35,925 bases of DNA from an uncultured Gemmatimonadaceae bacterium (GCA_964364615.1 CAYINH010000001.1:25965-61889), one strand, 5' to 3'. Shown: positions 2,899-28,083, counted from the stretch's first letter. Notes: a model not told the origin generated them from the sequence alone. Numbers and translations are program-made.

Positions 2899-2929
2899 GG
2901 ATGAGAGACTGCCCGAGGAGACCATCCTC
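2897..2929. terminator. Candidate bidirectional hairpin between convergent genes
   Basis: GAGGATG (2897-2903) pairs with CATCCTC (2923-2929), giving a 7-bp stem and 19-nt loop. The arms overlap the stop codons of both convergent genes (TGA 2896-2898; minus-strand stop 2928-2930). There is no U-tract. Confidence 0.3.
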
Positions 2930-4432: not shown

Positions 4433-4470
4433 CCGGTAGCCCGTCGCCACGTTTCCGAACTGGCTACCGG
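4433..4470 (-). terminator. Intercistronic hairpin overlapping the stop codon of the 1340-aa gene
   Basis: CCGGTAGCC (4433-4441) pairs with GGCTACCGG (4462-4470), a perfect 9-bp stem with a 20-nt loop. The stop codon at 4464-4466 lies inside one arm. There is no U-tract, so this could be an attenuator or mRNA-processing site rather than a terminator. Confidence 0.3.
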
Positions 4471-7400
4471 CCTCGGTCGAGGATGCTCCAGTCCACGTCG
4501 GTCCGTACCCCGGTCCAGACCTGCAGCGGACCGACGAGCATCCTGGTGCCGACCGTCTGGCCGTACAAGGAGAAATTCCAGAAGTGTTGCGGATCCAGCA
4601 CGGCTCGGCCCCGGAAGATCGGGATTCCGTCGAGGGCTACCCCGCAGGTGCCATCCGGGAAGAGCTGGATGCGCAGACGATACCAGCTACCCGTTCTCAG
4701 TACGGAATCAGCCCTGAACTCATGCCCCAGTTGGTTGGAGGTCGCGCGCGCCAGCCCCATCGCCGCCGCGCCTTCTCCCCCCGGGATGTCGAATCCGCAA
4801 CTGGCCAGGGTGAGGATCCCGGACTGCAGGATTGGTCCCGACCGGAGGAACTTGACGCGGAGGCTTTGCCACTTCGGTTGTGAGATCGGTGTCGCGATGA
4901 CGGTTTCGAGCCCCAACCCCGCGCCACCGGCGATTCGGAGCCGGCTGAGCACCCCGCTCTCGAACTGTCCATCGCCATTGTTGATCAGTGCCGGGAGTCC
5001 GCCAGGGCCACTCACGATCGCGGGCACCGGATCGCCGTACCGCTGCCAGGCTTCCAGCGTCGGGTCTGTCCATTCCTCCCGAAACACGGTGGCCCAACCG
5101 GCGGGCACCACTTCCAGGACCAGCGAGTCGCGACGCCATCCGCCTGCGGACACCCGAACGGTCACCCGACCCGCTCTCAACGGATGGAGGACTCCGCTTT
5201 GTTTGGAGATCACAGCGATGGAGATGTCGGAGACCTCCCAGGCCTGGATCCCGGAGTGCACCGCCACCGTGTCTCCTTCCCCATTCAAGCCGACCGCCGT
5301 GAGGAAGTGGCTGATTCCCAGAATCGCCGGCCCCGACGCCGGCGCAATCCGGACGCTTTCGATGACTCCATGGCTGGCAGCAGGTTGATCCCAACCGAAA
5401 CGGTAGCCCCCGACCGTGATGGTCTCCTCCCACGGGCGCCAGCTCCCGGGTTCACCAACTCGGCCAACGACCAGGCGGCCGCCACCCAGCAGACTGACTC
5501 CGGCCATCCAGCTTCCTCCGGGCTGCACTCGAGCCGACTGCAAACCGGTTGTGACGACGGTAGTGATGCTGGTGGAGTCCACGGCCCATTCCGAAAGGAG
5601 CGCCCCATCGGAGTCGCCCGAGGATTGAAAGCGCAACCGGCGGGAGTCGGTCCAACTGAGCTCTCGAGGGTCCCGGTAGCTCGGGTAGCTCGGCGGGGTG
5701 CACTGTTCCCACGATCCGTCCACCGTGACCCAGCAGATCGTTCGGAGCCCGCTTGACGCGTCGAGTCGGGTGAAGGCAGCCCGGGTACCGTCAGGCGACC
5801 AGGCCGGATGACCGTCGGAGTCCGGCCCGGCAGTGAGCTGCCGGATCTCTCCGGTGGCCAGATCGAGAATGGCGATGTCGGAATCTTCGTCACCATGCGG
5901 AGTCCAGCGAGCGGTGCCGAAGACGATCGCCGATCCATCGGGGGCCCAGGCGGGACCGAAGTCGTCACCGGGCGCCTCCGTCAGCCGGCGGATCCGGCCA
6001 TCGGGCTCTCGCAACACCAGGTCGATGCCCCCGGAATCCGGGAACACACGGTCGAACAGGATGCGCCCCCCGTCGGGGGCCGGAACGATGGTGGTGTAGT
6101 ATGAGTACCCCTCAGGCAGCACCCCGATCCTCTTTCCCTCGGCGAGAGTGAGCGGCACCCCGACCGGCCAGCGAGCCGGGAAGATCGGAATCTGGTAGAG
6201 CTCCATTCGCTCTCCGGCCTGGACATCACCGATGGCGGCAAGCAGGGTGGCCTCCGGCAGTCCGGCGGGCCGCCGGGCCAGTACCATCGCCAGGGGCAGG
6301 AGCGAGAGTGCGGCCAGGGCGGCCGCCACCGCCGTCCTGCTGGTGTGGTAGGTCCACCGCTCCACCGCCCGCATCTCGTGGGTCAGCCGGGTGACCTCGC
6401 TGGGGCCGGCATCGGGGCCGAGCGCCTGCCGGGCCAGGGCCTGCAGGGTGATCGGCTCCTTCCGCTGCCGAGCCCTGCGGGCCTGGGCCTTGAACAGGCG
6501 GACGAGGGCGTCGGGTTGCCCGGCGTGGCGCCAGTGGCGTGCGGCGCGCTGGTAGGCGCCGGGATCCTGCCCGATCCGGCCCGAGGTCCAGCTCGCCAGA
6601 GCGGCATGCGCGGCGGTCAGTTGGTCGGGGGTCGCCAGGCGGAGGGCGGCGGCCGCGATCTCGTCGTGGGCCGGGAGCAGCAGTTCCCCGGTGCGGGTGA
6701 TGAGACCCGCCTGTTCGAGCTGGTCAACGGCGGCTTCCCAGCCGATCCCCATCGCGCTCAGGGCTCGGCCCGGGAGGGGGACCTGGGCCACCGCAAGCCA
6801 GCGGAGCGCGGTGCGTGGGTCTTCCCGCAGGGTCCCGATCCGGTGCCGCAGCGGATCCACTTCGGCCAGATCTGCGATCATCGCCTCGGGATCGTCCCAC
6901 CGCCACCCCTCGGCGCCGATCTCCAGCCGGCCGCGCTGGATGGCCAGCTGGAGCAGCTCCAGGCCAAGCAGCGGCGAGCCACCGGATGCCTGGTGGAGTA
7001 CTGCGGCAAGCCGGGGAACGGCCGGGTGGTTCGGGTCCGAACCCAGGCTGGTCAGGAGCGCCTCGACCGCGGGCAGGGTCAACGGTTCCAGGTTGACCCT
7101 GACGGTCGCTGACCCCGCCGGCACGCCCCGGGTTTCCTCACGCGCCGCCGTGACGACCAGTACCCGGGCCGGCGCGAGCCGGTCCACCAGCCCGTCAATG
7201 ATGGCCCATGACGTATCATCGACCCAATGCAGATCGTCCAGCAACAGGACGAGGGGCGCTTCCTGGGCCACGCTTTCCACCAGCTCGGCGAGGGCCAGGG
7301 TGCGGTAGGGGACGCTGCCCGGTGTGCGCCGGGTGGCCGGAGCGGCGGGCAGGAAGGAGGACAGCGAGGGCGCCAGGGTCGTGAGTTCCGCGAGGGCGTC

Positions 7401-8486
7401 GGGGGAGACCCCGGTGACGCCCGGCAACTGGCCCAGGGCGTGAACCAGATCCCCGAGGAAGGCGCAGTCGCGGTGGCGCTCCCCGGGGGTGCCACGAACC
7501 TGGACGATTCGTCCGCGGCTGATCCGGAGGCGTCGCGCCAATTCCTCGAGGAGTCTGGTCTTGCCGAGTCCGGCCGGCGCCGAGAGGTGGACGTGCCGCC
7601 CGGGCCGGGTCTGGCTCGCTGGCCAGGCCTCGAGCAGCAGGGCAAACTCGCGCTCCCGGCCAACCAGCTCCGGGTTCAGCCGATCAGGCCCGCCGGGCGC
7701 TGAACCGGCTGGGGACGGGACCTCCGGCTGGCGGAGCCGTGCCAGCAGCCGGGCGGTGGCAGGTTCCGGCTCCCGGTCGCTGGCGTGCAACTGGCCCAGG
7801 AGGGCGTCGGCTTCCAGCGACGCGCCGGGGCGATTGCCGGCGGCGAGCAGGGACTCGAGCAGCAGCCGCCAGGCGGGTTCAGAGGCGGGGCAGAGGTCGC
7901 GGGCCTTGCTGGCCAGGCGGAGGGCGTCCCTAGGGTTGGGCCGGTCCAGCGCCTGGCGGACCGCGGATTCGGCGGCGCGCAGGAAGGCTGCCTGGAGCTG
8001 GTCCCGCTCCAGGTCGGCCCACTGCTCGAACCCCGCGGCACCCGGCGCCGCGTAGGCGGGAAAGAACTGGCCGCCGTACAACCCGACCGCTTCGGAGGCG
8101 CGTCCGCCGTGGATTGCCGCCAGGAAGAGGTCCCGGTCACAGGTAAGGTCGAGATTCAGGGTGACCGATTCGCCAACCGAGGTGATCGCCTCGGCGCCCA
8201 GAGCGGCCCGAATCCGGTAGATGGTCTGGCGGAGGGTCTGTCGGGCGGCTTCCGGGGAACAGTCGTTCCAGAACCGGTCGGTCAGGTGCTCCCGGGTGGC
8301 GGTGCGGCCGGGTGAGCAGTGGAGATATACGACCAGGGCCAAGCCCTTGCCGGGGGGCAGGCGGTCGGCGCCGGGGGCTCCGGTTGCCTGGTCAGCCTCG
8401 GCCAGGCGTGCGGTACCCAGGGTGAGGAGCGTGAAACGCCCGTCAGCGGTTGGGAGGTGGGATTGGAATTGTCTCGGACTGCTCAT
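4464..8486 (-). CDS. Membrane-anchored SARP-family regulator fused to a STAND ATPase and periplasmic TolB-like propeller, Big_2 and LamG-like domains
   Basis: 1340-aa ORF starting at ATG 8486.
- aa 1-255: winged helix plus BTAD (LRQTIYRIRAAL; FFPAYAAPGAAGFEQWADLERDQL).
- aa ~270-460: AAA_16/STAND ATPase (Walker A APAGLGKTRLL, Walker B LVLLLDDLHWVD), followed by a helical region.
- aa ~717-737: one hydrophobic helix (TAVAAALAALSLLPLAMVLA) flanked by Arg.
- PD40/TolB-type repeats (PAWAPDGSAIVF, PAWSPDGTRAAFTR).
- aa ~1040-1127: Big_2-like Ig domain (AWEVSDISIAVISKQSGVLHPLRAGRVTVRVSAGG).
- A jelly-roll-like C-terminus of about 210 aa. Confidence 0.85.
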   Translation of the reverse strand: MSSPRQFQSHLPTADGRFTLLTLGTARLAEADQATGAPGADRLPPGKGLALVVYLHCSPGRTATREHLTDRFWNDCSPEAARQTLRQTIYRIRAALGAEAITSVGESVTLNLDLTCDRDLFLAAIHGGRASEAVGLYGGQFFPAYAAPGAAGFEQWADLERDQLQAAFLRAAESAVRQALDRPNPRDALRLASKARDLCPASEPAWRLLLESLLAAGNRPGASLEADALLGQLHASDREPEPATARLLARLRQPEVPSPAGSAPGGPDRLNPELVGREREFALLLEAWPASQTRPGRHVHLSAPAGLGKTRLLEELARRLRISRGRIVQVRGTPGERHRDCAFLGDLVHALGQLPGVTGVSPDALAELTTLAPSLSSFLPAAPATRRTPGSVPYRTLALAELVESVAQEAPLVLLLDDLHWVDDTSWAIIDGLVDRLAPARVLVVTAAREETRGVPAGSATVRVNLEPLTLPAVEALLTSLGSDPNHPAVPRLAAVLHQASGGSPLLGLELLQLAIQRGRLEIGAEGWRWDDPEAMIADLAEVDPLRHRIGTLREDPRTALRWLAVAQVPLPGRALSAMGIGWEAAVDQLEQAGLITRTGELLLPAHDEIAAAALRLATPDQLTAAHAALASWTSGRIGQDPGAYQRAARHWRHAGQPDALVRLFKAQARRARQRKEPITLQALARQALGPDAGPSEVTRLTHEMRAVERWTYHTSRTAVAAALAALSLLPLAMVLARRPAGLPEATLLAAIGDVQAGERMELYQIPIFPARWPVGVPLTLAEGKRIGVLPEGYSYYTTIVPAPDGGRILFDRVFPDSGGIDLVLREPDGRIRRLTEAPGDDFGPAWAPDGSAIVFGTARWTPHGDEDSDIAILDLATGEIRQLTAGPDSDGHPAWSPDGTRAAFTRLDASSGLRTICWVTVDGSWEQCTPPSYPSYRDPRELSWTDSRRLRFQSSGDSDGALLSEWAVDSTSITTVVTTGLQSARVQPGGSWMAGVSLLGGGRLVVGRVGEPGSWRPWEETITVGGYRFGWDQPAASHGVIESVRIAPASGPAILGISHFLTAVGLNGEGDTVAVHSGIQAWEVSDISIAVISKQSGVLHPLRAGRVTVRVSAGGWRRDSLVLEVVPAGWATVFREEWTDPTLEAWQRYGDPVPAIVSGPGGLPALINNGDGQFESGVLSRLRIAGGAGLGLETVIATPISQPKWQSLRVKFLRSGPILQSGILTLASCGFDIPGGEGAAAMGLARATSNQLGHEFRADSVLRTGSWYRLRIQLFPDGTCGVALDGIPIFRGRAVLDPQHFWNFSLYGQTVGTRMLVGPLQVWTGVRTDVDWSILDRGR

Positions 8487-8768
8487 GTGACGGCCGTGTT
8501 ACGCTGGGAGTTGCATCTTGGGGGCACGATCCAGAGGGAGTCCCAAGAACAACGCCTTGTCCCAGCTTCCACGCGGCATGGTCCGGCTTTTCTTCGGGTC
8601 GCACTGAAGAAGGTACCGGCTGGTGGGGGAGGGGGCAAGGTGTTCCTCCGGCGGCCCCAGCTGCGGTCGGAATCGTTTCACGCTGCTCGGGCGGATCGTT
8701 GTTCCGGATCAAGCGCTTCAAACTCCTTCGCCACCAGGATGGACATCATGAGCCACGTTTTCTGTAGA

Positions 8769-9605
8769 ATGCGCGAGTCGAAATCGTACTCCGTCAATTT
8801 GGGCCTGGTTGTGATCCTCGGGACCGCACTGGGTTCCGCATGCGTCCCGGCGAAACCGGTGGAGCCTCCAACGCCACTGCCTGCTGCGCGCTACGATTTC
8901 ACGCCTTCCGATTGCCAGCAGCCAGGTTCCACACGACTCACCTTGGCCGTCATCGCCCCGCGCTGGCAGACCCCGACCCAGGCAACGTCCAGCGCGGCAG
9001 CGATGTATACAGGTTACGCGGCCCCAAGGGTGTTCCTCGACCTCGCCAATGCGATGCGAGGGGACTTCCTCGAACTGGCATCGTGTCGCGGATACCTCGC
9101 CAAGGGTCCATACGATTCATTCGAGGCGATGGTCTTTCCGGATCGAGAGGCCTCACAACTTCTACTGGAGCCCGACCTGCAGATCGATGTCAGTATCACC
9201 AACCTCGAAGCGGTGCCCAAGGCCGGCTTGGCTGGCTTGTTCACCCGGGGGAATGAGATGAACCAGATCAGCGGGCAGGCCAGCATTGGTGGGCGCGTCA
9301 CGCTTACCCTCAAGGAACCGGTGACCAACACGCGTATGTGGACCCGAAGCATCGATGTGCCTTCGCAAGCGTTCGCGTTCACCAGTCAGCGCGACTATTC
9401 GACGAGCGCCATGACAGAAGATCAGGCTCGTGTAGCTCTTTTGGAGGACGGGGGCTTCCTTCGGCTGCTACTGCCCAAGCTTGAGGGCATGTATGGGGCG
9501 GTGCTCCAGACGGCGGAGAACTACCTGGATGCCCGTGAGGTCCGTACCGTGGCCACCCAGGCTGCCGACGTCCGGAAGCGGGGGGCGGTAACGATACCGA
9601 GATAG
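8769..9605 (+). CDS. Hypothetical lipoprotein
   Basis: This is the 3' part of track ORF 8319..9605. The ATG at 8769 gives MRESKSYSVNLGLVVILGTALGSAC, with a charged n-region, a hydrophobic core and a Cys lipobox-like end. Alternative ATGs lie at 8739 and 8748. There is no clear SD. GC3 is lower than in the flanking genes. Confidence 0.65.
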   Translation: MRESKSYSVNLGLVVILGTALGSACVPAKPVEPPTPLPAARYDFTPSDCQQPGSTRLTLAVIAPRWQTPTQATSSAAAMYTGYAAPRVFLDLANAMRGDFLELASCRGYLAKGPYDSFEAMVFPDREASQLLLEPDLQIDVSITNLEAVPKAGLAGLFTRGNEMNQISGQASIGGRVTLTLKEPVTNTRMWTRSIDVPSQAFAFTSQRDYSTSAMTEDQARVALLEDGGFLRLLLPKLEGMYGAVLQTAENYLDAREVRTVATQAADVRKRGAVTIPR

Positions 9606-9773
9606 TTTGCGGCCGCGCCTGTCGCTTGCCCAGCATTGGTCATTCTGCGCGTGGCAGCAGCAGCAAGGGGATCCCCAATCGATGGGTTAGGGTACAGTCT
9701 GCGAGAGTTGCATGGTCTTGCATGGCGTCTACGACCGCCTTGGCGAGATCCGTGAGTTGATGAGGAAACAACC

Positions 9774-10574
9774 ATGAAAGCGATGTGCCATATGCGACGG
9801 ACCCGGGTGGGTGATCGCGCCGGTCGCCGCCACCATAGCCTTGCCGCCTTAGCGATTCTCCTCCTCCTTGGTTGTTCATCGAGGAACGCACCGTCTGGCG
9901 ATTCCGAGGTCAGAGCAGCCATCGAGTCAATGTTCAACGAACCTGACGTCGGTGTGGGGATCGGCGACATTGGGTTTGGGACTGGCCGCAGCGACATTCG
10001 CAAGAGCCAAGATCAGCTCTCAGAACTCCCTATCTATCGGGCCCTTGCAGCGAAGGGACTAATCAGTATCGCAAACGAAAGGGACCTTACAAGCAACTTC
10101 GGCGGTTGGGGGGATTGGTTTGCCCTTACCCAAGATGGCATCAAGAGAACCGCGACCGTCTCCATTGAGGATGAGAACCTGAAACAGCTACCGCCCTGCA
10201 AAGCGGAAGGTGGCAATGTGAACTGCCGAGTTCGCTTCGATGGCGTCGACCAACTCTGGCTGAGAATCGGCAAAAGCAAGATCCAAGACATTGTCGCCAA
10301 CGATAGCGTACTCATCGGCGCGACTCGCTACCGTGTTGTCATGGGAACCCATACCTATGAAGTGCCACCTGACTTGCAGGCTGCCATGGATTCAGCGAGA
10401 GGTGCTATGGGCCGTGAGCGTCGTTTCAAGGTGTTGCTCGAGTATGATCCATTTGTCAAGAGGTTCAAGTTGGTAGCCCTGGATCTTGCTGAGCGCTCCA
10501 AAGACTTTAGTTCGTCGAGCGTCGATGATCTACTGGCACAACTGAGACTCTGCGGCCCGTCGGGCTGCCAGTAA
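9774..10574 (+). CDS. Hypothetical lipoprotein
   Basis: 266-aa ORF. SD GAGGAA lies 7-8 nt upstream of ATG 9774. The signal peptide with lipobox is HHSLAALAILLLLGCSS. I recognise no domain. Codon third positions are A/T-rich compared with the flanks. Confidence 0.7.
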   Translation: MKAMCHMRRTRVGDRAGRRHHSLAALAILLLLGCSSRNAPSGDSEVRAAIESMFNEPDVGVGIGDIGFGTGRSDIRKSQDQLSELPIYRALAAKGLISIANERDLTSNFGGWGDWFALTQDGIKRTATVSIEDENLKQLPPCKAEGGNVNCRVRFDGVDQLWLRIGKSKIQDIVANDSVLIGATRYRVVMGTHTYEVPPDLQAAMDSARGAMGRERRFKVLLEYDPFVKRFKLVALDLAERSKDFSSSSVDDLLAQLRLCGPSGCQ

Positions 10575-10642
10575 GGTCCCGACCCCCGCAGAATGAGTGA
10601 TGGTGCGACAACCACCTTGACATGTACCGTAAGGATGAAATC

Positions 10643-13600
10643 ATGAAAGCTCTGGATTGGGCTCACTCCACACCTTCGCACCAGCGGCGTTGGTTACGAC
10701 AGTCTCGTTCAGTGGCAATCGCCGTCTTCGCTTCGCTTTCCTGCTCCCAACCTACTGCCCTAGAGCCGGTCGCGTCCGTTGCAATTCTCTCAGCACCTGA
10801 TGTCATGCTGGTGTCAAGCACCACGCAACTGAAGGCCGATCTCCGTGACACGAATGGTCGGACCCTTAATGCGAGAGCGGTGTCATGGGCTTCCAGTAAC
10901 TCCGCAGTACTCATGGTCTCGGCCTCAGGCCTCGCGACCGCGACCACCGCAGGCGGGCCCGTCTCTGTAACCGCTACTTCGGAAGGGCGGTCTGCCTCGG
11001 TGTCGATCGAGGTCGTATCGCTAGAAGTGGCGCCAGTCAATGACACCCTCTACGTCGGATCAAGCCGCGTCTTCGCCGTCGTAGGCGTGGGGGCCTCCGG
11101 TGCAGTGGGCCAGCTCCCTCCTGGCGCAGTGTCCTGGTCGACGTCAAATAGCCTCGTCGCGACTATCACACTGTCCGGTATTGTCCGCGGTCAGGCTCCC
11201 GGGACTGCACTCGTATCGGCGGTCTTGGCTGGTGTCTCGGCTTCAGGGAGCGTGATGGTAGAATCGGCACCGTCGGTTACGCAGCCTTCAAAGACTGTGG
11301 TTGGCACGGTGATCGTTCCTTCAGGTGTGAACCTCGAAGGAGTGACTATTCTAGCAGGAGCGGCGGGAGTCACTTCCGCAAACGCGCACGGCCAGTTCTC
11401 TATCACTACCTCCTCTGCCATCGAGACGGCACTAGTCGCCATGTACTCGGACGCGGTGATCGGCTTAGCAATCGCCCCAGCGCAGGGCGGCACGTCGATC
11501 GGAATCGACCCCCAAAGCACCGCCGTAGCGCTGGTATATCTTACCCCGACATTCGCGGTAGCGCCGCAAGGTGTAACGGCTGAGCTTCTGCAGCTACTCA
11601 GTACAATCCCGGCTGTTAGGAGTCTCGGCGACTTCCTGGGCAACACGACCACGCAGCGAATCGGGCTGCCAGATACAACAAACATGCAGTTCATGGTCCT
11701 CTACAGGGCTGCGGTTCAAGCGGCAGAGGCAACGTTGTTCGCACAGGCAGCAACCCCGGCTCAGTCAATTGCCCCGTCGCCATGGCAAGCCAGCGGGGTG
11801 AAGCTCACGTGGACATCGCCAACCCAAGCCCGTCTGTCGGTCCAACTACAGAACATATATGGACGCGACGCCGACGTTTACGCCGACCCTGCGAATCCAT
11901 CTGGCAATCCAGTCAGTGATCTGTCGGCGTTGAGTTGGAACCAGGCGCTTAACGATCGCATTTGGCTCCCTCCTGCAGACTATATCCCGAATGTCCTGAG
12001 CCTCTCTAGCTGGCTCAGAATCGCCCGTGGCGAGTACGGTCCATCTGCACCACGGAGCATGCAAGTGGATTTTACGTTCGCCTCTCCGCGGTATCGAGTC
12101 TCGGCATACGGAATTGGCGAGAACAACTGGACGGCCGACTGGGCCCGGATGCAGGGTGGTGAAAGGAGTCGGGCCATTCTACCAATGGGGATCACGGGTC
12201 TCTTTGGGGTAGTGATGCCCATAGTCGAGGTCGTGAGCGGCATCAAGATCATCGCGGCGGGAGGTGCCACTGTGCCGTCCCCGTTGATGGAACGGTTCAA
12301 GGTCTTTGCTGGCTCTCTGAACTTCACACGCTGTCTCACCGTCGGCGGAGTGGACGCTGTACCTTGCGTCTTTGACGTCATCTTCAAGGCGTCAATCACG
12401 GACCAAGCCTTCCTGCGAGAGACCCTCCTCGCCCTTGCCGCTTACCAGGGGATCACCCTATCCCGCACCGCCCTCACCGCAATCATGAACAATGTCAACG
12501 TCCTCGTGAGAACGGTGTCAAGCGTAACGGGAGTGGCCAAGGTGGGTCAGACACTCTATGCAGTCCGTAACGCGCGGCCCCGCGAGGATTTCGATTTTGC
12601 ATACAACGATTTGATCGGCGCAGACGCGATCCAGGTGTTCGGAGGGAATAATCAGGTGGGCAGCCAGGGGGCCGTGCTCTTCCAATCGCTTGCAGCACGC
12701 GCGGTGAATAGCGAAGGTGGCCCGGTGGCCAATGCATGGGTGACCTGGGCCCCGGATGTCGCCAACGGGGCGCCAAGCCCCGCCGCTGCGGTGACTGATC
12801 AACAGGGCGTTGCGCGAACAACATGGACCCTCGGTTCGGGTGCCCAACAGGGGATGACAGCGACCCTTGCAGGAACTGCGCGCACTGCCCGCTTTGCCGC
12901 AACGACGTCTGCACCACTTGGCAGCGCAACAGGCAGGGTAATCCACGGTCAAACCTCTGTCGGGATCGGTAGTGCACTAGTGGATGCTCGAACCGCAGCG
13001 GGGAGTGCAGGCGTCACCCAAACCGATGCTCAGGGGTTCTACACCATTACATTGCCGGCCGGAGCGTATGATTTGGTTATCACACGAACTGGGTTCGTCG
13101 CGGCCACCTTGTACGGGGTCACGGTCACGGCTGGATCGTCGCTGTCGATTCAAGACGTGCCCCTCGTGCCAACAAGTTCCTTCCTTGGTGGAATCGCTGG
13201 GACCGTTCGCGATGCGCAGACTTTCGGAGGTCTCACAAACGTCTCGATTGAGCTGCGAAGTGGCGTGAATAATGCGACGGGCAGCGCCCTCGCTACCACA
13301 ACGAGTGGCACCGCTGGCGCGTTTCAATTCAGCGGCCTTGCCGCCGGTACCTATTCGTTAAGGGCAGTTAGGTCAGGTTATTCGGTGGGTAGCCGGACTG
13401 GCATTGCCGTCGGCAGTACGACCGTCTCAGGCCAAGATATTGTAATGTCAGCGACGTCCGGGTCGGTGAGAATCGTTTTGACATGGGGCGCCGAGCCTGG
13501 TGACCTTGATTCTCATCTGACGGGTCCTATACCAGGCGGTGGTCGGTTTCATGTCTTCTATCAGATGCTCGGTTCCCTCACTGCGAGCCCCTTTGCTGCG

Positions 13601-14014
13601 TTGGACCGTGATGACACTTCCTCGTTTGGGCCTGAAACAGTAACAATTCAGGAAATCGCCACAGGAGTGTACCGCTACTCAGTCTTCAACTACTCGGCTG
13701 CCTGTGACCTTTTTGGAGGAGCCCCGTTGAGCCAGTCTGGGGCTCGGGTAGAGATCTACGTTGGCGGATCCCTTGCACGTCAGTACTTCGTGCCTAACCA
13801 GCCTGGAACGTTGTGGACTGTATTCGAACTGCAAGGATCCTCGATCACTCCGGTGAACCAAGTGACCGTACGTTCATGTGATGGCGGTGGTGTAGGCATT
13901 CCCGCTCCTCCGGCTGGGGATGGAGTGGCGGCTCAGGAGAATGACGGATGGTTGATTGGGCGGGTGAGTCGTTCGCATCCGAAGGAGCGGGCATTCTCGC
14001 CGAAAAGGCCGTAG
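10643..14014 (+). CDS. Large secreted multi-domain protein (Big_2 x2, CarboxypepD_reg-like x3, Big_1-like, DUF2135/YfaP-like C-terminal domain) with an unassigned central core
   Basis: Track ORF 10622..14014. ATG 10643 is preferred because AAGGA (10631-10635) lies 7 nt upstream. Residue numbers below follow the 1130-aa track ORF.
- Signal peptide ...SVAIAVFASLSCSQP.
- Two Big_2-like units (aa ~50-132 and 133-213).
- PEGA/CarboxypepD_reg-like units at aa ~226-290, 770-850 (TDAQGFYTITLPAGAYDLVI) and 856-942 (GAFQFSGLAAGTYSLRAV).
- Ig-like unit at aa ~666-762.
- aa ~947-1080: VRIVLTWGAEPGDLDSHLTGP...LDRDDTSSFGPETVTI...GVYRYSVFNYS resembles DUF2135. This assignment is tentative. Confidence 0.8.
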   Translation: MKALDWAHSTPSHQRRWLRQSRSVAIAVFASLSCSQPTALEPVASVAILSAPDVMLVSSTTQLKADLRDTNGRTLNARAVSWASSNSAVLMVSASGLATATTAGGPVSVTATSEGRSASVSIEVVSLEVAPVNDTLYVGSSRVFAVVGVGASGAVGQLPPGAVSWSTSNSLVATITLSGIVRGQAPGTALVSAVLAGVSASGSVMVESAPSVTQPSKTVVGTVIVPSGVNLEGVTILAGAAGVTSANAHGQFSITTSSAIETALVAMYSDAVIGLAIAPAQGGTSIGIDPQSTAVALVYLTPTFAVAPQGVTAELLQLLSTIPAVRSLGDFLGNTTTQRIGLPDTTNMQFMVLYRAAVQAAEATLFAQAATPAQSIAPSPWQASGVKLTWTSPTQARLSVQLQNIYGRDADVYADPANPSGNPVSDLSALSWNQALNDRIWLPPADYIPNVLSLSSWLRIARGEYGPSAPRSMQVDFTFASPRYRVSAYGIGENNWTADWARMQGGERSRAILPMGITGLFGVVMPIVEVVSGIKIIAAGGATVPSPLMERFKVFAGSLNFTRCLTVGGVDAVPCVFDVIFKASITDQAFLRETLLALAAYQGITLSRTALTAIMNNVNVLVRTVSSVTGVAKVGQTLYAVRNARPREDFDFAYNDLIGADAIQVFGGNNQVGSQGAVLFQSLAARAVNSEGGPVANAWVTWAPDVANGAPSPAAAVTDQQGVARTTWTLGSGAQQGMTATLAGTARTARFAATTSAPLGSATGRVIHGQTSVGIGSALVDARTAAGSAGVTQTDAQGFYTITLPAGAYDLVITRTGFVAATLYGVTVTAGSSLSIQDVPLVPTSSFLGGIAGTVRDAQTFGGLTNVSIELRSGVNNATGSALATTTSGTAGAFQFSGLAAGTYSLRAVRSGYSVGSRTGIAVGSTTVSGQDIVMSATSGSVRIVLTWGAEPGDLDSHLTGPIPGGGRFHVFYQMLGSLTASPFAALDRDDTSSFGPETVTIQEIATGVYRYSVFNYSAACDLFGGAPLSQSGARVEIYVGGSLARQYFVPNQPGTLWTVFELQGSSITPVNQVTVRSCDGGGVGIPAPPAGDGVAAQENDGWLIGRVSRSHPKERAFSPKRP

Positions 14015-14216
14015 GATGGAAGCGATCTGATGGGGAGCATTGGTTCGCAGTACCACTGAGAAGTTCAGACCCCCCCTCGCCCCGCGGACCCGAAATGGGC
14101 CGGAGCCCGGTTAGGGGCTGTGAATAAACAACTTGACGATCGCTCTACGGGGATGGTCCTGCCTCAGTTGAAATGTGACTCCTACCCGCTCCATGCTGTG
14201 GAGCCTGGTGGAGTCC

Positions 14217-14489
14217 ATGAGTCGAGAGAACGGCAAGGTCCGGCGGCACTTCCTGCCTGACGAGAAGGCGACCATCCTCCGGCGGCATCTGGCGGACAAG
14301 GTGCCCGTGTCGGACCTCTGCGACGAGTACCAGATCCAACCGAGCCTCTTCTACCTGTGGCAGCGGCAGGCGCTGGAGCATCGCAGCGCCGCGTTCCAGG
14401 ATGGGCGCACGCGGCGGGGCCAGCAGCAGAGCGCACAGAGTGAGCGCCACCGCATCGCCGCGTTGGAAGCGAAGCTCGCGAAGAAGGAC
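14217..14489 (+). mobile_element. Truncated IS3-family transposase OrfA (HTH_Tnp_1) fragment
   Basis: MSRENGKVRRHFLPDEKATILRRHLADKVPVSDLCDEYQIQPSLFYLWQRQALEHRSAAFQDG...RIAALEAKLAKKD matches the N-terminal HTH plus the start of the leucine-zipper of IS3-group OrfA proteins. After KKD (14489) the frame degenerates into Arg/Pro/Gly-rich sequence that is antisense to the next gene. There is no orfB. A possible left end is TGTGAATAAACAACTTGACG at 14119. Confidence 0.7.
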
Positions 14490-14595: not shown

Positions 14596-15357
14596 TCAGC
14601 GACCTGAGGTCGCCGCCCGGGCAAAATCCGACAGCACCAGCAGGCCGCTCACCACCGCGCGCTCGGGGAGCAACGTCTCCCACTGCTCGGTCCCCTGCCA
14701 GAAGGTCTGCTTCATCTGCGCCATCGCCTCGGGACTCGAGGCGGCCAGGCGAGTGGCCAGTGCCTGGACCGCGCTGTCCACCTCCTCGACCGTACTCAGC
14801 ACTTCGGAATAGAGCCCCTTCTCCCGGGCCCACTCGGCGTCGCGCCATTCGGTGGCGTTGACTGCTAGGGTGGTGAGCGCCGAAAGCCCGAGCTTCCGCT
14901 CGATGACCGGGCCCACCACGAACGGGCCGATCCCGATCGCCAGTTCACTCAGCTTGATCGAGGCACCGGGCCCGGCAATGGCGTAGTCGCTGGCCGCGAC
15001 CACTCCGACCCCGCCGCCCACGGCCTTCCCGTGGACCCGGGTGATCACGAACTTGGGGCATCGGATCATCGCCAGGATGAGCTTGGCAAACCCCATGAAG
15101 AACTGGGTTCCCTCCTCGGCGCTCCGGATGGCCTGGAGCTCCTGGAAGCTGGCGCCGGCGCAGAAGGGACCGGTCCCGTCGCTCCGGAGGACGATCACCC
15201 GCACCTCCCCATCGGTCCCGAGCGCGGTGACTTCGGCCGCCAGCCGCTGGAGCAGGGTCGCGGGGAGGGAATTGCCCTTGGGATGGTGAAATCGGATGGT
15301 GCCGATGCCCTCGGTGATCTCGACCAGGACCCGTCCGGGTTCGACGGCTGAACTCAC
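14596..15357 (-). CDS. Enoyl-CoA hydratase/isomerase (crotonase) family protein, possible PaaF role
   Basis: The track ORF 14596..15396 starts at a TTG. GTG at 15357 is preferred because AAGGAG lies 7 nt upstream. Crotonase motifs are present: [18 protein letters not shown] and [24 protein letters not shown]. The gene is divergent from paaA. Confidence 0.8.
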
Positions 15358-15514
15358 GGCGACGCTCCTTCCAGTGCAGCGTGGGGTATCCTCCAAAGAT
15401 AACGGGACTGGAATGCCTCCCGCCCTGGCCGGCCGGGCAACGTCTCTGGCATTCGGCCCTTCCCGTCTATTTTACGGGGAGACCGGCCGTCCTGGCCGGA
15501 GCCAAGGAGCCGAG

Positions 15515-16504
<990 letters not shown>

Positions 16505-16514
16505 GGAGGATCAG

Positions 16515-16820
16515 ATGACCGACGAAACCCCGACGGGTCAGACCCAGTGGCCGCTCTGGGAGGTCTTTACCCAGCCCGCCACCGGGCAGCCCCACGAGCA
16601 CGCCGGCAGCGTGCATGCCCCCGACGCCGAACTGGCGCTCCAGAACGCCCGGGACACCTACGCCCGGCGCGGCGAAGCGGTCAGTCTCTGGGTGGTCCCG
16701 GCCGACGCAATCACGGCCAGCAGTCCAGGTGACGCGGGGCCGTTCTTCGATCCCGGCAATGACAAGACCTACCGGCACCCCCAGTTCTACAAGGTGCCGC
16801 GTGGCGTCCGGGGGTTCTGA
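16515..16820 (+). CDS. paaB: 1,2-phenylacetyl-CoA epoxidase subunit B
   Basis: SD GAGGAGGA (16504-16511) precedes ATG 16515. The 101-aa product contains WPLWEVF...HAGSVHAPDAELALQNARDTYARR, typical of PaaB. Its position is immediately after paaA. Confidence 0.9.
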   Translation: MTDETPTGQTQWPLWEVFTQPATGQPHEHAGSVHAPDAELALQNARDTYARRGEAVSLWVVPADAITASSPGDAGPFFDPGNDKTYRHPQFYKVPRGVRGF

Positions 16821-16824
16821 CCCG

Positions 16825-17586
16825 ATGAGCCATCAGGCCGCTCTGTTCGACTACCTGCTCGGCCTGGCCGACGACCGGCTGGTGCTGGGGCATCGGCTCA
16901 GTGAATGGTGTGGCCATGGACCGATCCTCGAGGAGGACATCGCGCTGACCAATGTGTCGCTCGACCTGATCGGTTCAGCCAACCTGTGCTACGGACTGGC
17001 CGGAGAGGTGGAAGGGAAGGGCCGCGACGCCGACGCCCTGGCCTACTTCCGGGAGGCGATCGAGTTCCGGAGTCACCCACTGGTCGAGCTGCCCCGGGGG
17101 GACTACGCTTTCACCATGGTGCGGCAGTTCCTGTTCGATGTCTACAGCTGGCAGCTGCTGAGCGCGCTGCGCCAGAGCAAGGAAACCCGGCTCGGCGACA
17201 TCGCCGCCAAGGCCTGGAAGGAAGCGGCCTATCATCTCCGCCACAGTTCGGAGTGGGTGGTCCGGTTCGGCGACGGCACCGGGGAAAGCCATCGGCGGGC
17301 CCAGACTGCGCTGGACGAGGCGTGGCGTTGGACCGGAGCCCTGCACCAGCCCACGGTGCCGGAAGCTGAGCTGATCGCGGCCGGTATCGCACCGGACCTG
17401 GCGGTGCTCCGGACCGACTGGGATCGGTTGGTGCGGGAGGTACTCGACCGGGCCACCCTGACGCTGCCGGAGGAGGTGCCCCCCACCGGTCGCGGATACC
17501 GCCGGGGCGATCACACCGAGCACCTGGGGCAGCTGCTGAGCGAGATGCAGAGCGTGGCCCGGGCCCACCCCGGGGCATCGTGGTAG
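16825..17586 (+). CDS. paaC: 1,2-phenylacetyl-CoA epoxidase subunit C
   Basis: ATG 16825 lies 4 nt after the paaB stop. LLGLADDRLVLGHRLSEWCGHGPILEEDIALTNVSLDLIG is typical of PaaC. Gene order paaABCD is conserved. Confidence 0.9.
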   Translation: MSHQAALFDYLLGLADDRLVLGHRLSEWCGHGPILEEDIALTNVSLDLIGSANLCYGLAGEVEGKGRDADALAYFREAIEFRSHPLVELPRGDYAFTMVRQFLFDVYSWQLLSALRQSKETRLGDIAAKAWKEAAYHLRHSSEWVVRFGDGTGESHRRAQTALDEAWRWTGALHQPTVPEAELIAAGIAPDLAVLRTDWDRLVREVLDRATLTLPEEVPPTGRGYRRGDHTEHLGQLLSEMQSVARAHPGASW

Positions 17587-18074
17587 CCACCGGCGCCGAG
17601 GTGGTCGAACTGCTGCACGAGGTCAAGGACCCCGAGGTGCCGGTCATCAGCATCGTGGAACTGGGGATCGTGCGTGGGGCGGAGGTGGACGGCTCCCGGG
17701 TGGTGGTCGACCTCACCCCGACCTACTCCGGCTGCCCCGCGATGCGGGTGATCGAGGAAGAGGTGCAGGCGGCGCTGACTGGACACGGGTTCACCGAGGT
17801 GGAGGTGCGCACCGTGCTCCGGCCGGCCTGGACCACCGACTGGATCACCGAGGACGGGAAACGGAAGCTCCAGCAGTACGGGATCGCCCCGCCCGGGCCG
17901 GCCCCCGACCTGGAGGCCCCGCTCGCGCTGGGACCGACCGTCCGGGTAGTGGGGTGCCCGTACTGCGGATCGGACCAGACGACCCTCCGGAGCGGTTTCG
18001 GCTCCACCGCCTGCAAGGCGCTGTATTATTGCAATGCCTGTCACCAGCCGTTTGAGCACTTCAAGGCCTTCTAG
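17580..18074 (+). CDS. paaD: Phenylacetate degradation protein PaaD (DUF59-type)
   Basis: GTG 17580 overlaps the paaC stop (GTGGTAG). The N-terminal DUF59-like segment is VKDPEVPVISIVELGIV...TYSGCPA. The C-terminal Cys cluster is CPYCGS...CNAC. Confidence 0.88.
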   Translation: MVATGAEVVELLHEVKDPEVPVISIVELGIVRGAEVDGSRVVVDLTPTYSGCPAMRVIEEEVQAALTGHGFTEVEVRTVLRPAWTTDWITEDGKRKLQQYGIAPPGPAPDLEAPLALGPTVRVVGCPYCGSDQTTLRSGFGSTACKALYYCNACHQPFEHFKAF

Positions 18075-18115
18075 TCTCCCGGTCTGACCGGCCGGTGGAC
18101 GCCTCGGAGCAACCG

Positions 18116-19537
18116 ATGACCCGGCCCCGTCCTGGCTTGGCTACATTCGTCCTGCTGGCCGCCCTGGCCCTGCCGGCCTGCCGGGTGGCAGAACCGGAAG
18201 CGACCCGCCCCAACATCGTCGTCGTCCTGGTGGATGACCTCCGGTGGGATGACATCGCGGTGGCGGGGCATCCATTCGTCGAGACCCCCAACATCGATCA
18301 GATGGCGGCCGAGGGGGTCCGGTTCCTCAACGCCTTTGCGGCGACTCCGCTCTGCTCTCCCAGCCGGGCCAACATCCTGACCGGGCAGTACGCTCATACC
18401 AACGGGATCGTCGACAACACGGCCCGGGATGCCACCAGCCATCGGCTCGCGACCTTTGCCCGACCCCTGGCCGACGCCGGGTATCGGACCGCCTTCCTCG
18501 GCAAGTGGCACATGGGGAACGACGACACTCCGCGGCCGGGGTGGACCCGCTGGGTGGCGATGAAGGGGCAGGGCGAAGCGATGAACCCCGGGCTCAATGT
18601 GGATGGGGAGCGGATCGTGGCGCCAGGGTATGTCACCGACGTGCTGACCGACTACGCCGTCGACTTCATCAAGGCCGACCAGAGCATCCCGTTCATGCTC
18701 TTCCTGGCCCACAAGGCCCTGCATCCGAACGTGATGCAGCGGGATGACGGGAGCACCGACAATCTGACCGATCAGCCGAGCGGGTTCGTGGCCGCGGAGC
18801 GGCATCGGGGGCGCTATGCGACGGCAGAGCTTCCCCGACGGGCCAACTACGGAGTGGCGCCGGTCTGGAAGCCGGCTTTGCAGCGGAAGATCGACACCCT
18901 GCCGCCGCTCGGGCCCGGCACGGTCACCCCGGACAAGGAGATCCGGGACCGTCTCGAGATGGTGCTCGGGGTGGACGAGAGCCTGGGGCGGATCGTGGCG
19001 GCCCTCCGCGAGCTGGGACAGCTGGACAACACGGTGCTCATCGTCACCAGCGATCACGGGTACTTCTACGGTGAACACGGACTCAACGAGGAGCGACGGC
19101 TGGCCTACGAGGAGACCGCCCGGATCCCGCTGATCATCCGCTACCCGAAGGTGGCACCGGCGGGTGAGACGATGGGGCAGCTGGTGCAGACCATCGATCT
19201 GGCGCCCACGGTCCTGGCGCTGGCCGGCATCGTCGACACCGCCCGGCGCGACGGGGTGTCGCTCACCAGTCTCCTGACGGGCCACTCCACGGACTGGCGC
19301 ACCTCACTGCTGATCGAGTACTGGACCGATACCGTCTTCCCGCGGATGCTGACGATGGGGTACCAGGCCGTCCGGACCGAGCACTACAAGTACATCCACT
19401 ACCTGGCGCTGTCCGGGGCAGACGAGCTCTATTACCTGGCCTCCGACCCGTTCGAGCTGAACAACATCATCGACACCGAAGCCGGCCAGGCGGTGCTGCC
19501 GGAGCTGAAGGCCGAGCTGCGGCGGCTCCAGCGATGA
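18116..19537 (+). CDS. Formylglycine-dependent sulfatase with lipoprotein-type signal peptide
   Basis: Track ORF 18095..19537; ATG 18116 gives MTRPRPGLATFVLLAALALPAC. Sulfatase motifs are present: IVVVLVDDLRWDD, CSPSRANILTG (C-x-P-x-R) and GKWHMG. It is on the same strand as paaD, 41 nt downstream. Confidence 0.9.
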   Translation: MTRPRPGLATFVLLAALALPACRVAEPEATRPNIVVVLVDDLRWDDIAVAGHPFVETPNIDQMAAEGVRFLNAFAATPLCSPSRANILTGQYAHTNGIVDNTARDATSHRLATFARPLADAGYRTAFLGKWHMGNDDTPRPGWTRWVAMKGQGEAMNPGLNVDGERIVAPGYVTDVLTDYAVDFIKADQSIPFMLFLAHKALHPNVMQRDDGSTDNLTDQPSGFVAAERHRGRYATAELPRRANYGVAPVWKPALQRKIDTLPPLGPGTVTPDKEIRDRLEMVLGVDESLGRIVAALRELGQLDNTVLIVTSDHGYFYGEHGLNEERRLAYEETARIPLIIRYPKVAPAGETMGQLVQTIDLAPTVLALAGIVDTARRDGVSLTSLLTGHSTDWRTSLLIEYWTDTVFPRMLTMGYQAVRTEHYKYIHYLALSGADELYYLASDPFELNNIIDTEAGQAVLPELKAELRRLQR

Positions 19538-19670
19538 CAAGGAGGCCGGCTGGAGGGTGACGGCTCCCGGGTCACGAATTCGGCGGAAGGCCTCTTCTTC
19601 ATCCGGCTGCCCAACGGCGACCTGAGTCTGGAGCCGCTGGGGACGCTGACCAGGAACCGGCCCGACTGAG

Positions 19671-20528
19671 CTACTTCCGGCCCTTGAGTTCGATTTCGGA
19701 GATGATGAATCCGAATCCGTTCCAGCCGTCGGTCTGGACGGCCCGGGTGAACGCCGCCGTGGCCGCGGCGGTGTCGCCCCGGACCAGGTACCAGTTGCCG
19801 AGTCCGTAGCTCAGGGTTGCGACCTGAACCCCGGCGGTGTCGGCCGGGGTGAACAGCTCGTCGGGACCGATCTCTCCGCGGTAGAGTCGGAGCCGGGCGG
19901 CGTAGGCGTTGTTGACCGGCAGCGAATCCGGCCGCTGGGCCAGCATCGCCCGGGCCTCGGCGCCCCGGCCGGCCCGCGAAAGCGACATCCAGAGCCAGTC
20001 CGTCGACCCGGCCAGTTCACCCGCGTTCGGCGCGATCGGCTGGCCCTTCGCAAACGCCTCCGCGGCGCCAGTGAAGTCGCCTCGGGCAAACAGCACGATT
20101 CCCAGGTGATACCAGATCCCGTAGATACCGGGGTCCAGCCGACCGCCTCGGGTCAGGTCGGCGAGGGCTTTGTCGAACTCCCGGATCGAGAGATACCGGT
20201 GCCCCCGCCATCTCAGCAGCATCGCGTGGTCGGGCGCCAGCGCGAGCCCGCGGCTGAAGGTGGCGATCGCCTCCCGATACTGGGTGGCCCCGGCCTGGGC
20301 CAGGCCAAGCTGGAGGATCAGGTCGACGTTGTTGGGTGCGGCGGCCAGGGCGGCCTCGGCGCGGGCAATGGCCCCGGTGTCCGGTTGCGACCGGAACTCG
20401 ATGCCGGCATTGGAGCGGTACTGCACGGACTGCCCCTGGAGCGGGACGGCAGTGGTCCCGGCGGCGATCATGACCGCCAGGGCCCAGGTCAAGCGGGGAG
20501 CACGTCGCATCGGAGAGTGGGTTGGCAT
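19671..20528 (-). CDS. Secreted TPR-repeat protein
   Basis: Track ORF 19671..20591. ATG 20528 (or 20510) avoids overlap with the upstream stop at 20540. The signal peptide is RLTWALAVMIAAGTTAVPLQGQ. TPR-like repeats include AIATFSRGLALAPDHAMLLRWRGHRY and DKALADLTRGGRLDP. Confidence 0.75.
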   Translation of the reverse strand: MPTHSPMRRAPRLTWALAVMIAAGTTAVPLQGQSVQYRSNAGIEFRSQPDTGAIARAEAALAAAPNNVDLILQLGLAQAGATQYREAIATFSRGLALAPDHAMLLRWRGHRYLSIREFDKALADLTRGGRLDPGIYGIWYHLGIVLFARGDFTGAAEAFAKGQPIAPNAGELAGSTDWLWMSLSRAGRGAEARAMLAQRPDSLPVNNAYAARLRLYRGEIGPDELFTPADTAGVQVATLSYGLGNWYLVRGDTAAATAAFTRAVQTDGWNGFGFIISEIELKGRK

Positions 20529-20539
20529 CGGGGTTCCGG

Positions 20540-21052: not shown

Positions 21053-21071
21053 GAGTATCTCCTTGAAAGGG

Positions 21072-28073: not shown

Positions 28074-28083
28074 ACCGCCTTCC

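Follow-up and report, generated by a model that had tools for sequence, protein, structure and literature searches.

STAND/NLR-type switches are normally cytosolic proteins. Among the described systems closest to the locus reported here, ToxR works with a partner, ToxS; in TolB-Pal, RcsF, and NlpE, a lipoprotein reports the state of the envelope to an inner-membrane component; and the polysaccharide-utilisation loci of Bacteroidota employ hybrid two-component sensors with periplasmic propellers, together with Ig-stalked surface lipoproteins. Here, we analysed a stretch of 35,925 nucleotides from an uncultured Gemmatimonadaceae bacterium (GCA_964364615.1, CAYINH010000001.1:25965-61889; hereafter the window), which belongs to Gemmatimonadota, a widespread and poorly studied phylum. 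Our subject is the segment at 8487-14489, in which three open reading frames (ORF1, ORF2, and ORF3) encode predicted lipoproteins, and the regulator gene next to it, here called REG, which runs in the opposite direction and combines a SARP-type DNA-binding part, a STAND NTPase, and a predicted periplasmic propeller.

We read the segment as the envelope-lipoprotein operon targeted by REG, partly replaced by lateral transfer, rather than as a self-contained mobile system, and we give this reading an even chance of being correct. The first-pass annotation of this DNA had proposed a candidate undescribed system, its author knowing of none with this composition; we, too, found none in the literature searched, and neither these lipoprotein families nor regulators of a transmembrane SARP-STAND-propeller type were described there.

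Results

A SARP-STAND regulator with a predicted periplasmic sensor

REG (4464-8486, minus strand; 1340 aa) was delineated by Pfam and NCBIfam profiles (Trans_reg_C, BTAD, AAA_16, and PD40), by hydropathy, and by its orthologs. A gap of 282 bp separates it from the divergent ORF1; this gap, the length of the regulator, and its transmembrane nature were all part of the first-pass annotation and agree with the coordinates, the domains, and the predicted helix. At the N-terminus, an OmpR-type winged helix-turn-helix (wHTH) is followed by BTAD, which is the order that defines the SARP family. The match to Trans_reg_C (E 3.3e-5, 24.3 bits) is slightly under the cutoff of 26.2 and that to BTAD (23.4 bits) is over the cutoff of 22.1, and both profiles are matched in all three REG orthologs, with best E values of 1.6e-6 and 7e-9. 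AAA_16 is matched at residues 273-445 over its entire profile (E 3e-18) and is followed by a helical region, and the orthologs give weak nSTAND and NACHT matches; an AAA_16/NOD-type P-loop with a helical or repeat arm is the layout of AfsR/MalT-like STAND NTPases.

Hydropathy revealed one hydrophobic helix (aa 717-738), as in ToxR-like single-pass proteins, with the PD40 repeats and conserved Cys residues on its C-terminal side. Given this single helix, the SARP-STAND half should be cytoplasmic and the last ~600 aa periplasmic. In the predicted periplasmic part, a PD40/TolB-like beta-propeller is followed by an Ig-like domain and, at the C-terminus, a beta domain. REG is not a TolB protein; its match to the TolB model TIGR02800 reaches 41.9 bits vs a cutoff of 343 and is limited to residues 830-906, the combination of a full N-terminal domain, a six-bladed propeller, and a tol-pal context is lacking, and no tol or pal gene was found near REG in the window annotation. 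The Ig-like domain had been assigned to Big_2, the type also present in ORF3. BLAST speaks for this assignment, with a match between the domain and a Big_2 protein (E 1.5e-6) and another between the L017 ortholog of REG and the second Big_2 of ORF3 (E 6e-5; L numbers denote the loci compared), whereas Pfam gave no match, Big_2 included, in the C-terminal 300 aa of the window protein as a single sequence, and Big_2 at E 0.058 in one ortholog; the assignment is therefore tentative.

A second BTAD regulator, also membrane-anchored, is encoded at 30876-33716 (minus strand; 946 aa); its transmembrane helix (aa 272-296) precedes TPR repeats, and its similarity to REG is confined to the wHTH-BTAD part (32% over the first 225 aa).

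Heptad repeats and the conserved spacer

A candidate operator (8487-8516, plus strand) abuts the REG start codon and consists of GTGACGG-N4-GTTACGC with a weak third copy, GTTGCAT, at a spacing of 11-12 nt. A second heptad pair in divergent orientation, CTGACGG-N4-TTCACG (8430-8446, minus strand), is found inside REG codons 14-19 and may be functional or a mere by-product of the coding sequence; L017 and L009 share the divergent pair arrangement, with 30-40 bp between the pairs. Similar elements are located at the 5' ends of REG in L011 (GTGACGC-N4-GTCACGC) and L017 (CTGACGC-N4-CTGACGG), and TTGACG pairs occur in the REG-lipoprotein spacer of L009. The pattern GTGAC-N6-GTYAC is present once in the 36-kb window, at the 8487-8516 element, vs 0.15 expected. 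In the 194 kb of the window and the loci together, the strict heptad-pair pattern occurs 13 times, as compared to 0.77±0.9 (maximum 3) in shuffles that keep mononucleotide content only. Eight of these 13 hits are at REG 5' ends, and three are directly upstream of ORF3-family genes on contigs in which REG is not seen.

In L019, six heptads with 11-12-nt spacing are located 50-120 nt before the ATG of an ORF3-family gene; in L020, three heptads are present, and from the end of the last it is 8 nt to a -10-like hexamer, TATCCT, and ~20 nt to the probable start of the lipoprotein; and in L018, GTGACC-N4-GTGACGG is found ~30 nt before an ORF3-family gene. In the promoters controlled by SARPs, direct repeats with a spacing of 11 or 22 bp have been described, the 3' one being 8 bp away from the -10 element (PMC10936776); such repeats overlap the -35 region. 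From the sequences of these elements we infer that the SARP domain of REG binds yTGACG repeats, which fits all loci better than a palindrome, a reading that holds for L011 and L014 only. A CRP-like palindrome, GTGAC...GTCAC, was considered and not favoured, because the units in L009, L017, L019, and L020 are unambiguous direct repeats.

The REG-ORF1 spacer with a long ORF1 leader (8487-8768, plus strand) shares blocks at the nucleotide level with a Gemmatimonadales metagenome-assembled genome (MAG); the blocks ACGCCTTGTC, GGGTCGCAC, and GGCAAGGTG are conserved with L011, where they are upstream of its ORF1 relative. The spacer has no Rfam match, and no conserved small open reading frame was found in 8520-8747 (~230 nt), a stretch that may be a structured leader or may contain further operator sites. 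In L011, the REG 5' coding end and the DNA upstream of it are present twice, as direct repeats of 330 bp (5845-6170 and 9454-9778; 91-97% identical). Between the copies is a 3.6-kb insert with four genes (encoding proteins of 214 aa and 171 aa, ClpP, and a ClpP-like protein), an arrangement that looks like integration by recombination at the promoter of the regulator. The duplication around the insert implies that REG and ORF1 were originally a direct divergent pair there, as they are in the window.

Gene neighbourhoods of REG and the three genes

By tblastn, three loci showed a REG ortholog divergent from an ORF1 relative: L006/L011, with 36% identity from end to end, L009 with 41%, and L014 with 36%, the last two matches running up to the contig end. 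L017, a contig of 73% G+C content (GC), encodes a full-length REG ortholog (35% over 1345 aa) divergent from four genes, of which three are small (two for lipoproteins and one weakly LPP20/FlgT_N-like) and the last encodes P0139, the ortholog of ORF3; the composition of these four genes is typical of the contig. The three full-length REGs, from the window, L011, and L017, align end to end, the conserved periplasmic Cys included. In total, REG is present in four of about eight independent ORF1 contexts and in two of the four informative ORF3-family contexts. The proposed link of the surface-protein genes to the divergent regulator is thus supported by REG orthologs with 35-41% identity in four other loci, and by the TGACG repeats that they share. 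Homology of ORF1 and ORF2 to the small lipoproteins of the REG-linked operons in L017 and L009 was also considered and rejected, as signal peptides alone aligned.

The three genes had been presented as one module, and this part of the proposal did not survive the comparison. We rejected a conserved ORF1-ORF2-ORF3 trio because ORF2 relatives occur in L001 and L002 without relatives of ORF1 or ORF3; ORF1 relatives are also found without REG in at least five other contexts, and ORF3-family genes are solitary in L019 and L020. Co-occurrence with the SARP-STAND regulator elsewhere holds for two of the three families, with ORF1 relatives in L006/L011, L009, and L014 and the ORF3 ortholog in L017.

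Several relatives have mobile contexts. The ORF1 relative of L004 belongs to a mobile element that also encodes a serine recombinase and a TrwB-like ATPase, that of L016 is near another TrwB-like gene, and the ORF2 relative of L002 is in a mobile context with a mer operon. L004 (9048-15483) and L002 (1-2954) have a common backbone, comprising a TrwB/TraD-like ATPase of ~990 aa (45%) and a protein of 235-266 aa (54%), which indicates that ORF1- and ORF2-type genes travel on one kind of element. Contigs of this type have a GC of 57-62%, like the island. In L005, the ORF1 relative adjoins a gene for a 776-aa protein homologous to the C-terminal third of ORF3, with Ser/Thr kinase genes nearby. A 4.3-kb contig (L003) from the groundwater metagenome ERZ1292636 is identical in sequence to this DNA.

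ORF1, ORF2, and ORF3 as predicted lipoproteins

The three genes had been described as consecutive, on the same strand, with a signal peptide or lipobox and without a recognisable enzymatic domain, and our results agree. No enzymatic domain was found in Pfam or NCBIfam, and each protein starts with a signal-like stretch whose last residue, a Cys, does not vary within the family; from these features, all three are predicted to be lipoproteins. The gaps are 168 nt between ORF1 and ORF2 and 68 nt between ORF2 and ORF3, and no intrinsic terminator was found in the segment by a scan that is uninformative, as are the sigma-70 promoter hits, which are at chance level. With short gaps and no terminator-like structures, co-transcription of ORF1, ORF2, and ORF3 is plausible. 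One TG-extended sigma-70-like site (10617-10644, plus strand; TTGACA, 16-nt spacer, AATCAT, 10 of 12 positions matched) reaches to the start codon of ORF3 and may act as an internal promoter, reflect a leaderless start, or go with an alternative start at 10622.

ORF1 (8769-9605, plus strand) encodes 278 aa, or 285 aa from a start at 8748. Its ~46 relatives, with 35-60% identity, carry no Pfam domain or name, and an alignment of 38 of them shows an invariant C25 and a strongly conserved motif, GGRVTLTLKEPVTNTRMWTRSIEVP / GGRVTLTLKEPVTNTRMW. Of 185,579 species-representative genomes, just three contain ORF1 relatives, two from Gemmatimonadales and one from Longimicrobiales, and the named relatives of ORF1 and of the Big_2 region of ORF3 are almost all from Gemmatimonadota. 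One relative (L013, 8107-8925) follows a gene for an extracytoplasmic function sigma factor, is divergent from a Ser/Thr kinase gene, and precedes an Hsp70-like gene (L012/L013), so that the family also has a signalling neighbourhood of another kind.

The AlphaFold2 model of ORF1, built on the 38-sequence alignment, is confident, with a predicted local distance difference test score (pLDDT) of 86.9 and a predicted template-modelling score (pTM) of 0.79. Its top Foldseek matches in PDB are H. pylori HpaA, HP0492, and HP0410, with E values of 5e-10 to 1e-8 and target-normalised template-modelling (TM) scores of 0.62-0.70; for HpaA itself, the values are 5e-10 and 0.66-0.70. Weaker matches were obtained with FlgT, CsgG, DUF330, GNA1162, LptE, and PelC (probabilities 0.9-1.0, TM-scores 0.2-0.45). 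A lipobox with an alpha/beta sandwich, as in CsgG/LptE/LpoB-type proteins, denotes a fold class and not a family assignment. Judged by the model, ORF1 is of an outer-membrane lipoprotein fold class and most like HpaA, a likeness at the fold level alone, and no Pfam hit, the HpaA/NLBH profile PF05211 included, was obtained at E<=0.01. The HpaA fold has been described as distinctive to Helicobacteraceae (PMC10936181).

ORF2 (9774-10574, plus strand; 266 aa) is of a very rare family: a search of 5.8 billion protein clusters yielded five relatives. C34 is invariant in the family alignment (n=6), and no match was found in Pfam, NCBIfam, PADLOC, PHROG, or the PDB sequence-profile search. Two relatives have usable contexts, L002 and L001, the latter with a CsgG/LpoB-like lipoprotein gene three genes upstream. 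Inverted repeats of 19 nt (9631-9649 and 10587-10605; 79% complementary) bracket ORF2, probably by chance, with eight such pairs in 7 kb.

ORF3 (10643-14014, plus strand) encodes a modular protein of 1123 aa with Cys34 in a non-canonical lipobox, SLSC, and was analysed by Pfam, family search, AlphaFold2, and comparison with P0139. On the plus strand, it contains two Big_2 domains (10769-11272, Pfam), an unannotated central domain of ~460 aa (11315-12712), a Big_1 (12689-12886, Pfam), two CarboxypepD_reg domains (12929-13417, Pfam), and a DUF2135/PPC-like jelly roll (13463-13912) recognised by weak family-level matches. ORF3 had appeared to be an orphan in a word-indexed full-length search, which gave Big_2 matches alone (~15% of the query). 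This was overturned by an exhaustive HMMER search with the central 466 aa, which retrieved 25 proteins (11 at E<1e-30) that carry the domain in a corresponding relative position.

The order in this family is lipobox, optional Big_2, a small beta domain, the central domain, Big_1, and a variable C-terminal module, and the Cys is followed by a G/S/D-rich linker in every member read. The C-terminal modules include the two CarboxypepD_reg domains with a jelly roll of ORF3, RCC1 repeats, a PD40 propeller, an FGE-sulfatase, and other beta-propeller-like modules, and short members (620-790 aa) are made up of lipobox, central domain, and the ORF3-type jelly roll. Some members contain PD40 propellers and Big_2 domains like those of the periplasmic part of REG. 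The family looks like a surface or envelope scaffold showing exchangeable binding modules. P0139 matches ORF3 with 41% identity over 1099 aa, the C-terminal tail included, so ORF3 is intact and was not shortened by the insertion sequence (IS) remnant downstream.

The AlphaFold2 model of the central domain has a pLDDT of 82.9 and a pTM of 0.81. It has no match in PDB (best E 0.07, TM <0.2) or BFVD, and the PDB sequence-profile search gave nothing significant. In the central domain, a strongly hydrophobic segment of 33 residues, RAILPMGITGLFGVVMPIVEVVSGIKIIAAGGA (aa 510-542, 12170-12268), is modelled as a long helix, which may be buried in the core or may insert into a membrane.

The weak link of the jelly roll to DUF2135 and PPC came from a per-member scan of the family alignment, while Pfam found nothing in the C-terminal 180 aa of ORF3 as a single sequence; a weak relation to the C-terminal domain of the subtilisin Tk-SP was seen as well. 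A jelly roll of this type also ends a Lachnospiraceae M4 metallopeptidase (P0042, aa 1055-1197, 36% identity), and in P0160, a low-GC-looking lipoprotein of 786 aa, Big_2 is missing and the central domain, two CarboxypepD_reg domains, and the jelly roll are present. These two proteins indicate that the core architecture of ORF3 reaches beyond Gemmatimonadota.

Base composition and the ends of the segment

The lower GC and the A/T-leaning third codon positions noticed in the first-pass annotation were both confirmed. All 500-nt windows in 8501-14000 have a GC of 0.538-0.628, vs 0.65-0.75 in most flank windows and an average of ~68% in the whole window. At 200-nt resolution, the drop begins at ~8450-8500, which is the REG start codon, and GC recovers at ~14200-14300, within the remnant of an IS3-family orfA. 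The GC at third codon positions (GC3) is 0.844±0.049 in 18 flank genes, as compared to 0.724 in ORF1 (z -2.5), 0.614 in ORF2 (z -4.7), and 0.617 in ORF3 (z -4.6), while REG, with 0.82, is host-typical. Per 200-codon window, GC3 is <=0.72 in all 12 windows of the island (flank minimum 0.71, median 0.845). Codon usage also distinguishes ORF1, ORF2, and ORF3 from the flanks, the log-loss of synonymous codons against flank usage being 1.20-1.45 nats per codon in island genes vs 0.66-1.12 in flank genes.

The difference in z between ORF1 and the other two genes suggests that ORF1 has a different history. ORF1 is probably the older partner of REG, because the REG-ORF1 pair and its intergenic DNA are conserved with the Gemmatimonadales MAG, and ORF2 and ORF3 look like later arrivals or replacements. 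Horizontal acquisition, as originally proposed, thus holds in part: the composition is foreign, most clearly in ORF2 and ORF3, but the conserved pair and spacer are not those of a clean island.

The segment had also been called IS-bounded, and this applies to its right end. The truncated IS3 orfA reported there (14175-~14490, plus strand) is located between the ORF3 stop codon and the convergent enoyl-CoA hydratase gene of the phenylacetate (paa) cluster. It retains the N-terminal helix-turn-helix alone and has no orfB; a complete IS3 element has orfA, orfB (DDE transposase), and terminal inverted repeats. HTH_Tnp_1 is matched over its cutoff (26.6 bits), a PHROG transposase is matched too, and transpos_IS3 is matched at profile positions 2-71 of 369 (28.6 bits vs a cutoff of 160). 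At the left end, we looked for an IS, a tRNA gene, an integrase or recombinase, and a flanking direct repeat and found none; no recombinase was found among the annotated genes of the whole window. Of the usual marks of a genomic island, the segment has the atypical composition and lacks an integrase, a tRNA target, and flanking direct repeats, and an island with boundaries set by repeats, a tRNA, or a recombinase was dropped. A phage origin was dropped as well, as there was no PHROG match except the transposase and no BFVD fold match.

Genes on either side

On the far side of REG, two genes match candidate defence systems of PADLOC: an AAA_14/DUF4143/Mrr_cat protein (1576-2898, plus strand) matches PDC-S01 (E 7e-90) and a DUF6880/TPR protein (2928-4400, minus strand) matches PDC-S62 (E 2e-41). 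L009 contains a counterpart of the 1576-2898 gene (66% identity), 5 kb from the REG and ORF1 homologs and beside SNF2 and DUF1156 genes. The right flank (14596-30728) is the paa cluster, with genes for enoyl-CoA hydratase, PaaA/PaaC-type oxygenase subunits, 3-hydroxyacyl-CoA dehydrogenase, and a PaaZ-like Aldedh-MaoC fusion; the cluster is broken up by genes for a sulfatase (18095-19537), a TPR protein, and an E1 dehydrogenase/transketolase-like protein.

Discussion

In the circuit that we infer, for the signal sensed as well as for heptad binding, three-gene co-transcription, and envelope location, a periplasmic or envelope cue would be sensed by the propeller module of REG and passed to the STAND switch. 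The SARP domain would then bind the tandem yTGACG heptads, one helical turn apart, at the divergent promoter. ORF1 would be driven from this promoter, and ORF2 and ORF3 by read-through. The products would be three lipoproteins, probably outer-membrane or surface-located: ORF1, the recurrent partner of REG, could be a co-sensor or an assembly factor, and ORF3 a giant Ig-stalked lipoprotein of a family in which the core is conserved and the C-terminal binding modules are exchangeable. The copies of ORF2 and ORF3 now present, and perhaps that of ORF1, would stem from a relative of lower GC, acquired by lateral transfer or by allelic replacement, maybe at a locus that REG already controlled, with a decayed IS3 element left at the distal end. 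Import from such a relative is indicated by the low GC3 of ORF2 and ORF3, the IS remnant, and the mobile contexts seen for relatives of ORF1 and ORF2, taken together.

Several observations weigh against control of all three genes by REG. The plus-strand heptads are ~245 nt from the ORF1 start and abut the ATG of REG, so they could serve autoregulation only, and the minus-strand pair falls in coding sequence. No heptad is located directly 5' of ORF2 or ORF3 in the window; their control by REG therefore hangs on unproven read-through, and the sigma-70-like site before ORF3 could give this gene its own promoter. The element in L011 and L014 can also be read as a palindrome. REG is not seen in the available sequence of about half of the ORF1 contexts (L004, L005, L012/L013, and L016) or in two of the four informative ORF3-family contexts (L019 and L020, where the genes stand alone), and in their two usable contexts ORF2 relatives never adjoin relatives of ORF1 or ORF3. 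In addition, BTAD-type regulators are multicopy in this genome, and the loci are few and mostly short metagenome contigs.

Some of these points would also be expected if the genes were accidental neighbours, that is, unrelated accessory genes in a recombination-prone spot between REG and the paa cluster, with REG regulating itself and at most ORF1, and with ORF2 and ORF3 as independent cargo. We consider this unlikely. The unconserved trio, in which ORF2 stays apart from the other two, is in line with it, as are the IS remnant, the GC3 step from 0.72 in ORF1 to 0.61 in ORF2 and ORF3, which suggests separate histories, and the variable neighbourhood suggested by adjoining genes that differ at every REG locus and by the PDC-S01 and PDC-S62 genes on the other side. 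However, L017 pairs REG with a full-length ORF3 ortholog in genome-typical composition, and heptads precede ORF3-family genes in L018, L019, and L020, a repeated independent association that is hard to obtain by chance.

We regard it as quite improbable that the segment is remnant cargo of an integrative or conjugative element whose lipoproteins serve the element itself, e.g., in surface or entry exclusion or in mating-related envelope functions. The ATPase gene and the gene for the 266-aa protein that adjoin both the ORF1 relative of L004 and the ORF2 relative of L002 would fit such an origin, and so would the serine recombinase of L004, the mer operon of L002, the TrwB-like gene of L016, the island-like GC of these contigs, and the IS3 remnant in the window. 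On the other hand, the window is without a recombinase, a coupling ATPase, or attachment repeats, no ORF3-family gene was seen on such backbones, and the REG-ORF1 pair with its conserved spacer points to chromosomal, regulator-linked inheritance. The lowest probability goes to an anti-phage or anti-invader surface module in a defence island, where surface lipoproteins under the control of a STAND sensor would mask or modify receptors. Defence systems often contain STAND NTPases, the two PADLOC-matched neighbours lie next to REG, and L009 and L004 carry SNF2/DUF1156, Cap15-like, and related defence-type genes near ORF1 relatives. REG and the three ORFs themselves, however, have no PADLOC or PHROG hit, so a known anti-phage system was rejected; the SARP DNA-binding domain with a periplasmic sensor is an architecture typical of transcriptional signalling, and the module of L017 is located among housekeeping genes.

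If the reading as a REG-controlled lipoprotein operon is correct, a STAND switch with its sensor outside the cytoplasmic membrane and fused to a DNA-binding domain would be a compact way of coupling envelope cues to transcription, and such a regulator would provide a handle on gene regulation in Gemmatimonadota. The analysis defines three unannotated protein families, of which one has a confidently modelled domain without a solved match and one extends the HpaA fold beyond Helicobacter, and the candidate operator makes it possible to predict the regulon by motif. It is possible, although we hold it to be rather doubtful, that Gemmatimonadota have an undescribed trans-envelope signalling system, consisting of a membrane-spanning, NLR-like STAND-SARP regulator with a periplasmic propeller, yTGACG repeats every 11 nt that it recognises, and a regulon of lipoproteins (ORF1 as an outer-membrane partner of HpaA fold, and the giant modular surface lipoproteins of the ORF3 family, with a 460-aa domain unmatched in solved structures and swappable distal modules).

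The likeness to known systems differs from component to component. HpaA, HP0410, and HP0492 (PF05211) are lipoproteins, as ORF1 is predicted to be, and are the best structural matches of its model; the sequence identity is 12-14%, ORF1 has an extra C-terminal helical hairpin, and an adhesin role is not implied. A periplasmic PD40 propeller encoded beside an outer-membrane-type lipoprotein recalls TolB-Pal, RcsF, and NlpE, which is an analogy only; ORF1 has no sequence relationship with Pal, RcsF, or NlpE, and REG matches part of the TolB propeller model. The polysaccharide-utilisation loci of Bacteroidota also place a membrane regulator with a propeller sensor beside multi-domain surface lipoproteins with distal binding modules. 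This is again an analogy; the locus described here has no SusC/SusD pair, TonB-dependent transporter, or glycoside hydrolase, and its regulator has a different chemistry.

The closest relatives of REG are found in two groups of regulators. With the large SARPs of AfsR type from Streptomyces, it shares the order of wHTH, BTAD, STAND NTPase, and helical repeats, as well as a candidate site of 11-nt direct repeats, whereas the transmembrane helix and the ~600-aa periplasmic sensor of PD40, Ig-like, and beta domains are additions, the predicted binding repeat, yTGACG, is of a different sequence, and the gene is found in Gemmatimonadota beside lipoprotein genes and not in antibiotic clusters. With regulators of ToxR/CadC type, it shares a cytoplasmic OmpR-type wHTH, a single transmembrane helix, and a periplasmic domain, that is, control across the membrane without a phosphorelay, whereas BTAD and a STAND ATPase are inserted between the DNA-binding domain and the membrane, and the sensor is a beta-propeller. 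REG is a new architectural variant of AfsR-like and ToxR-like regulators, and its putative targets are unannotated families.

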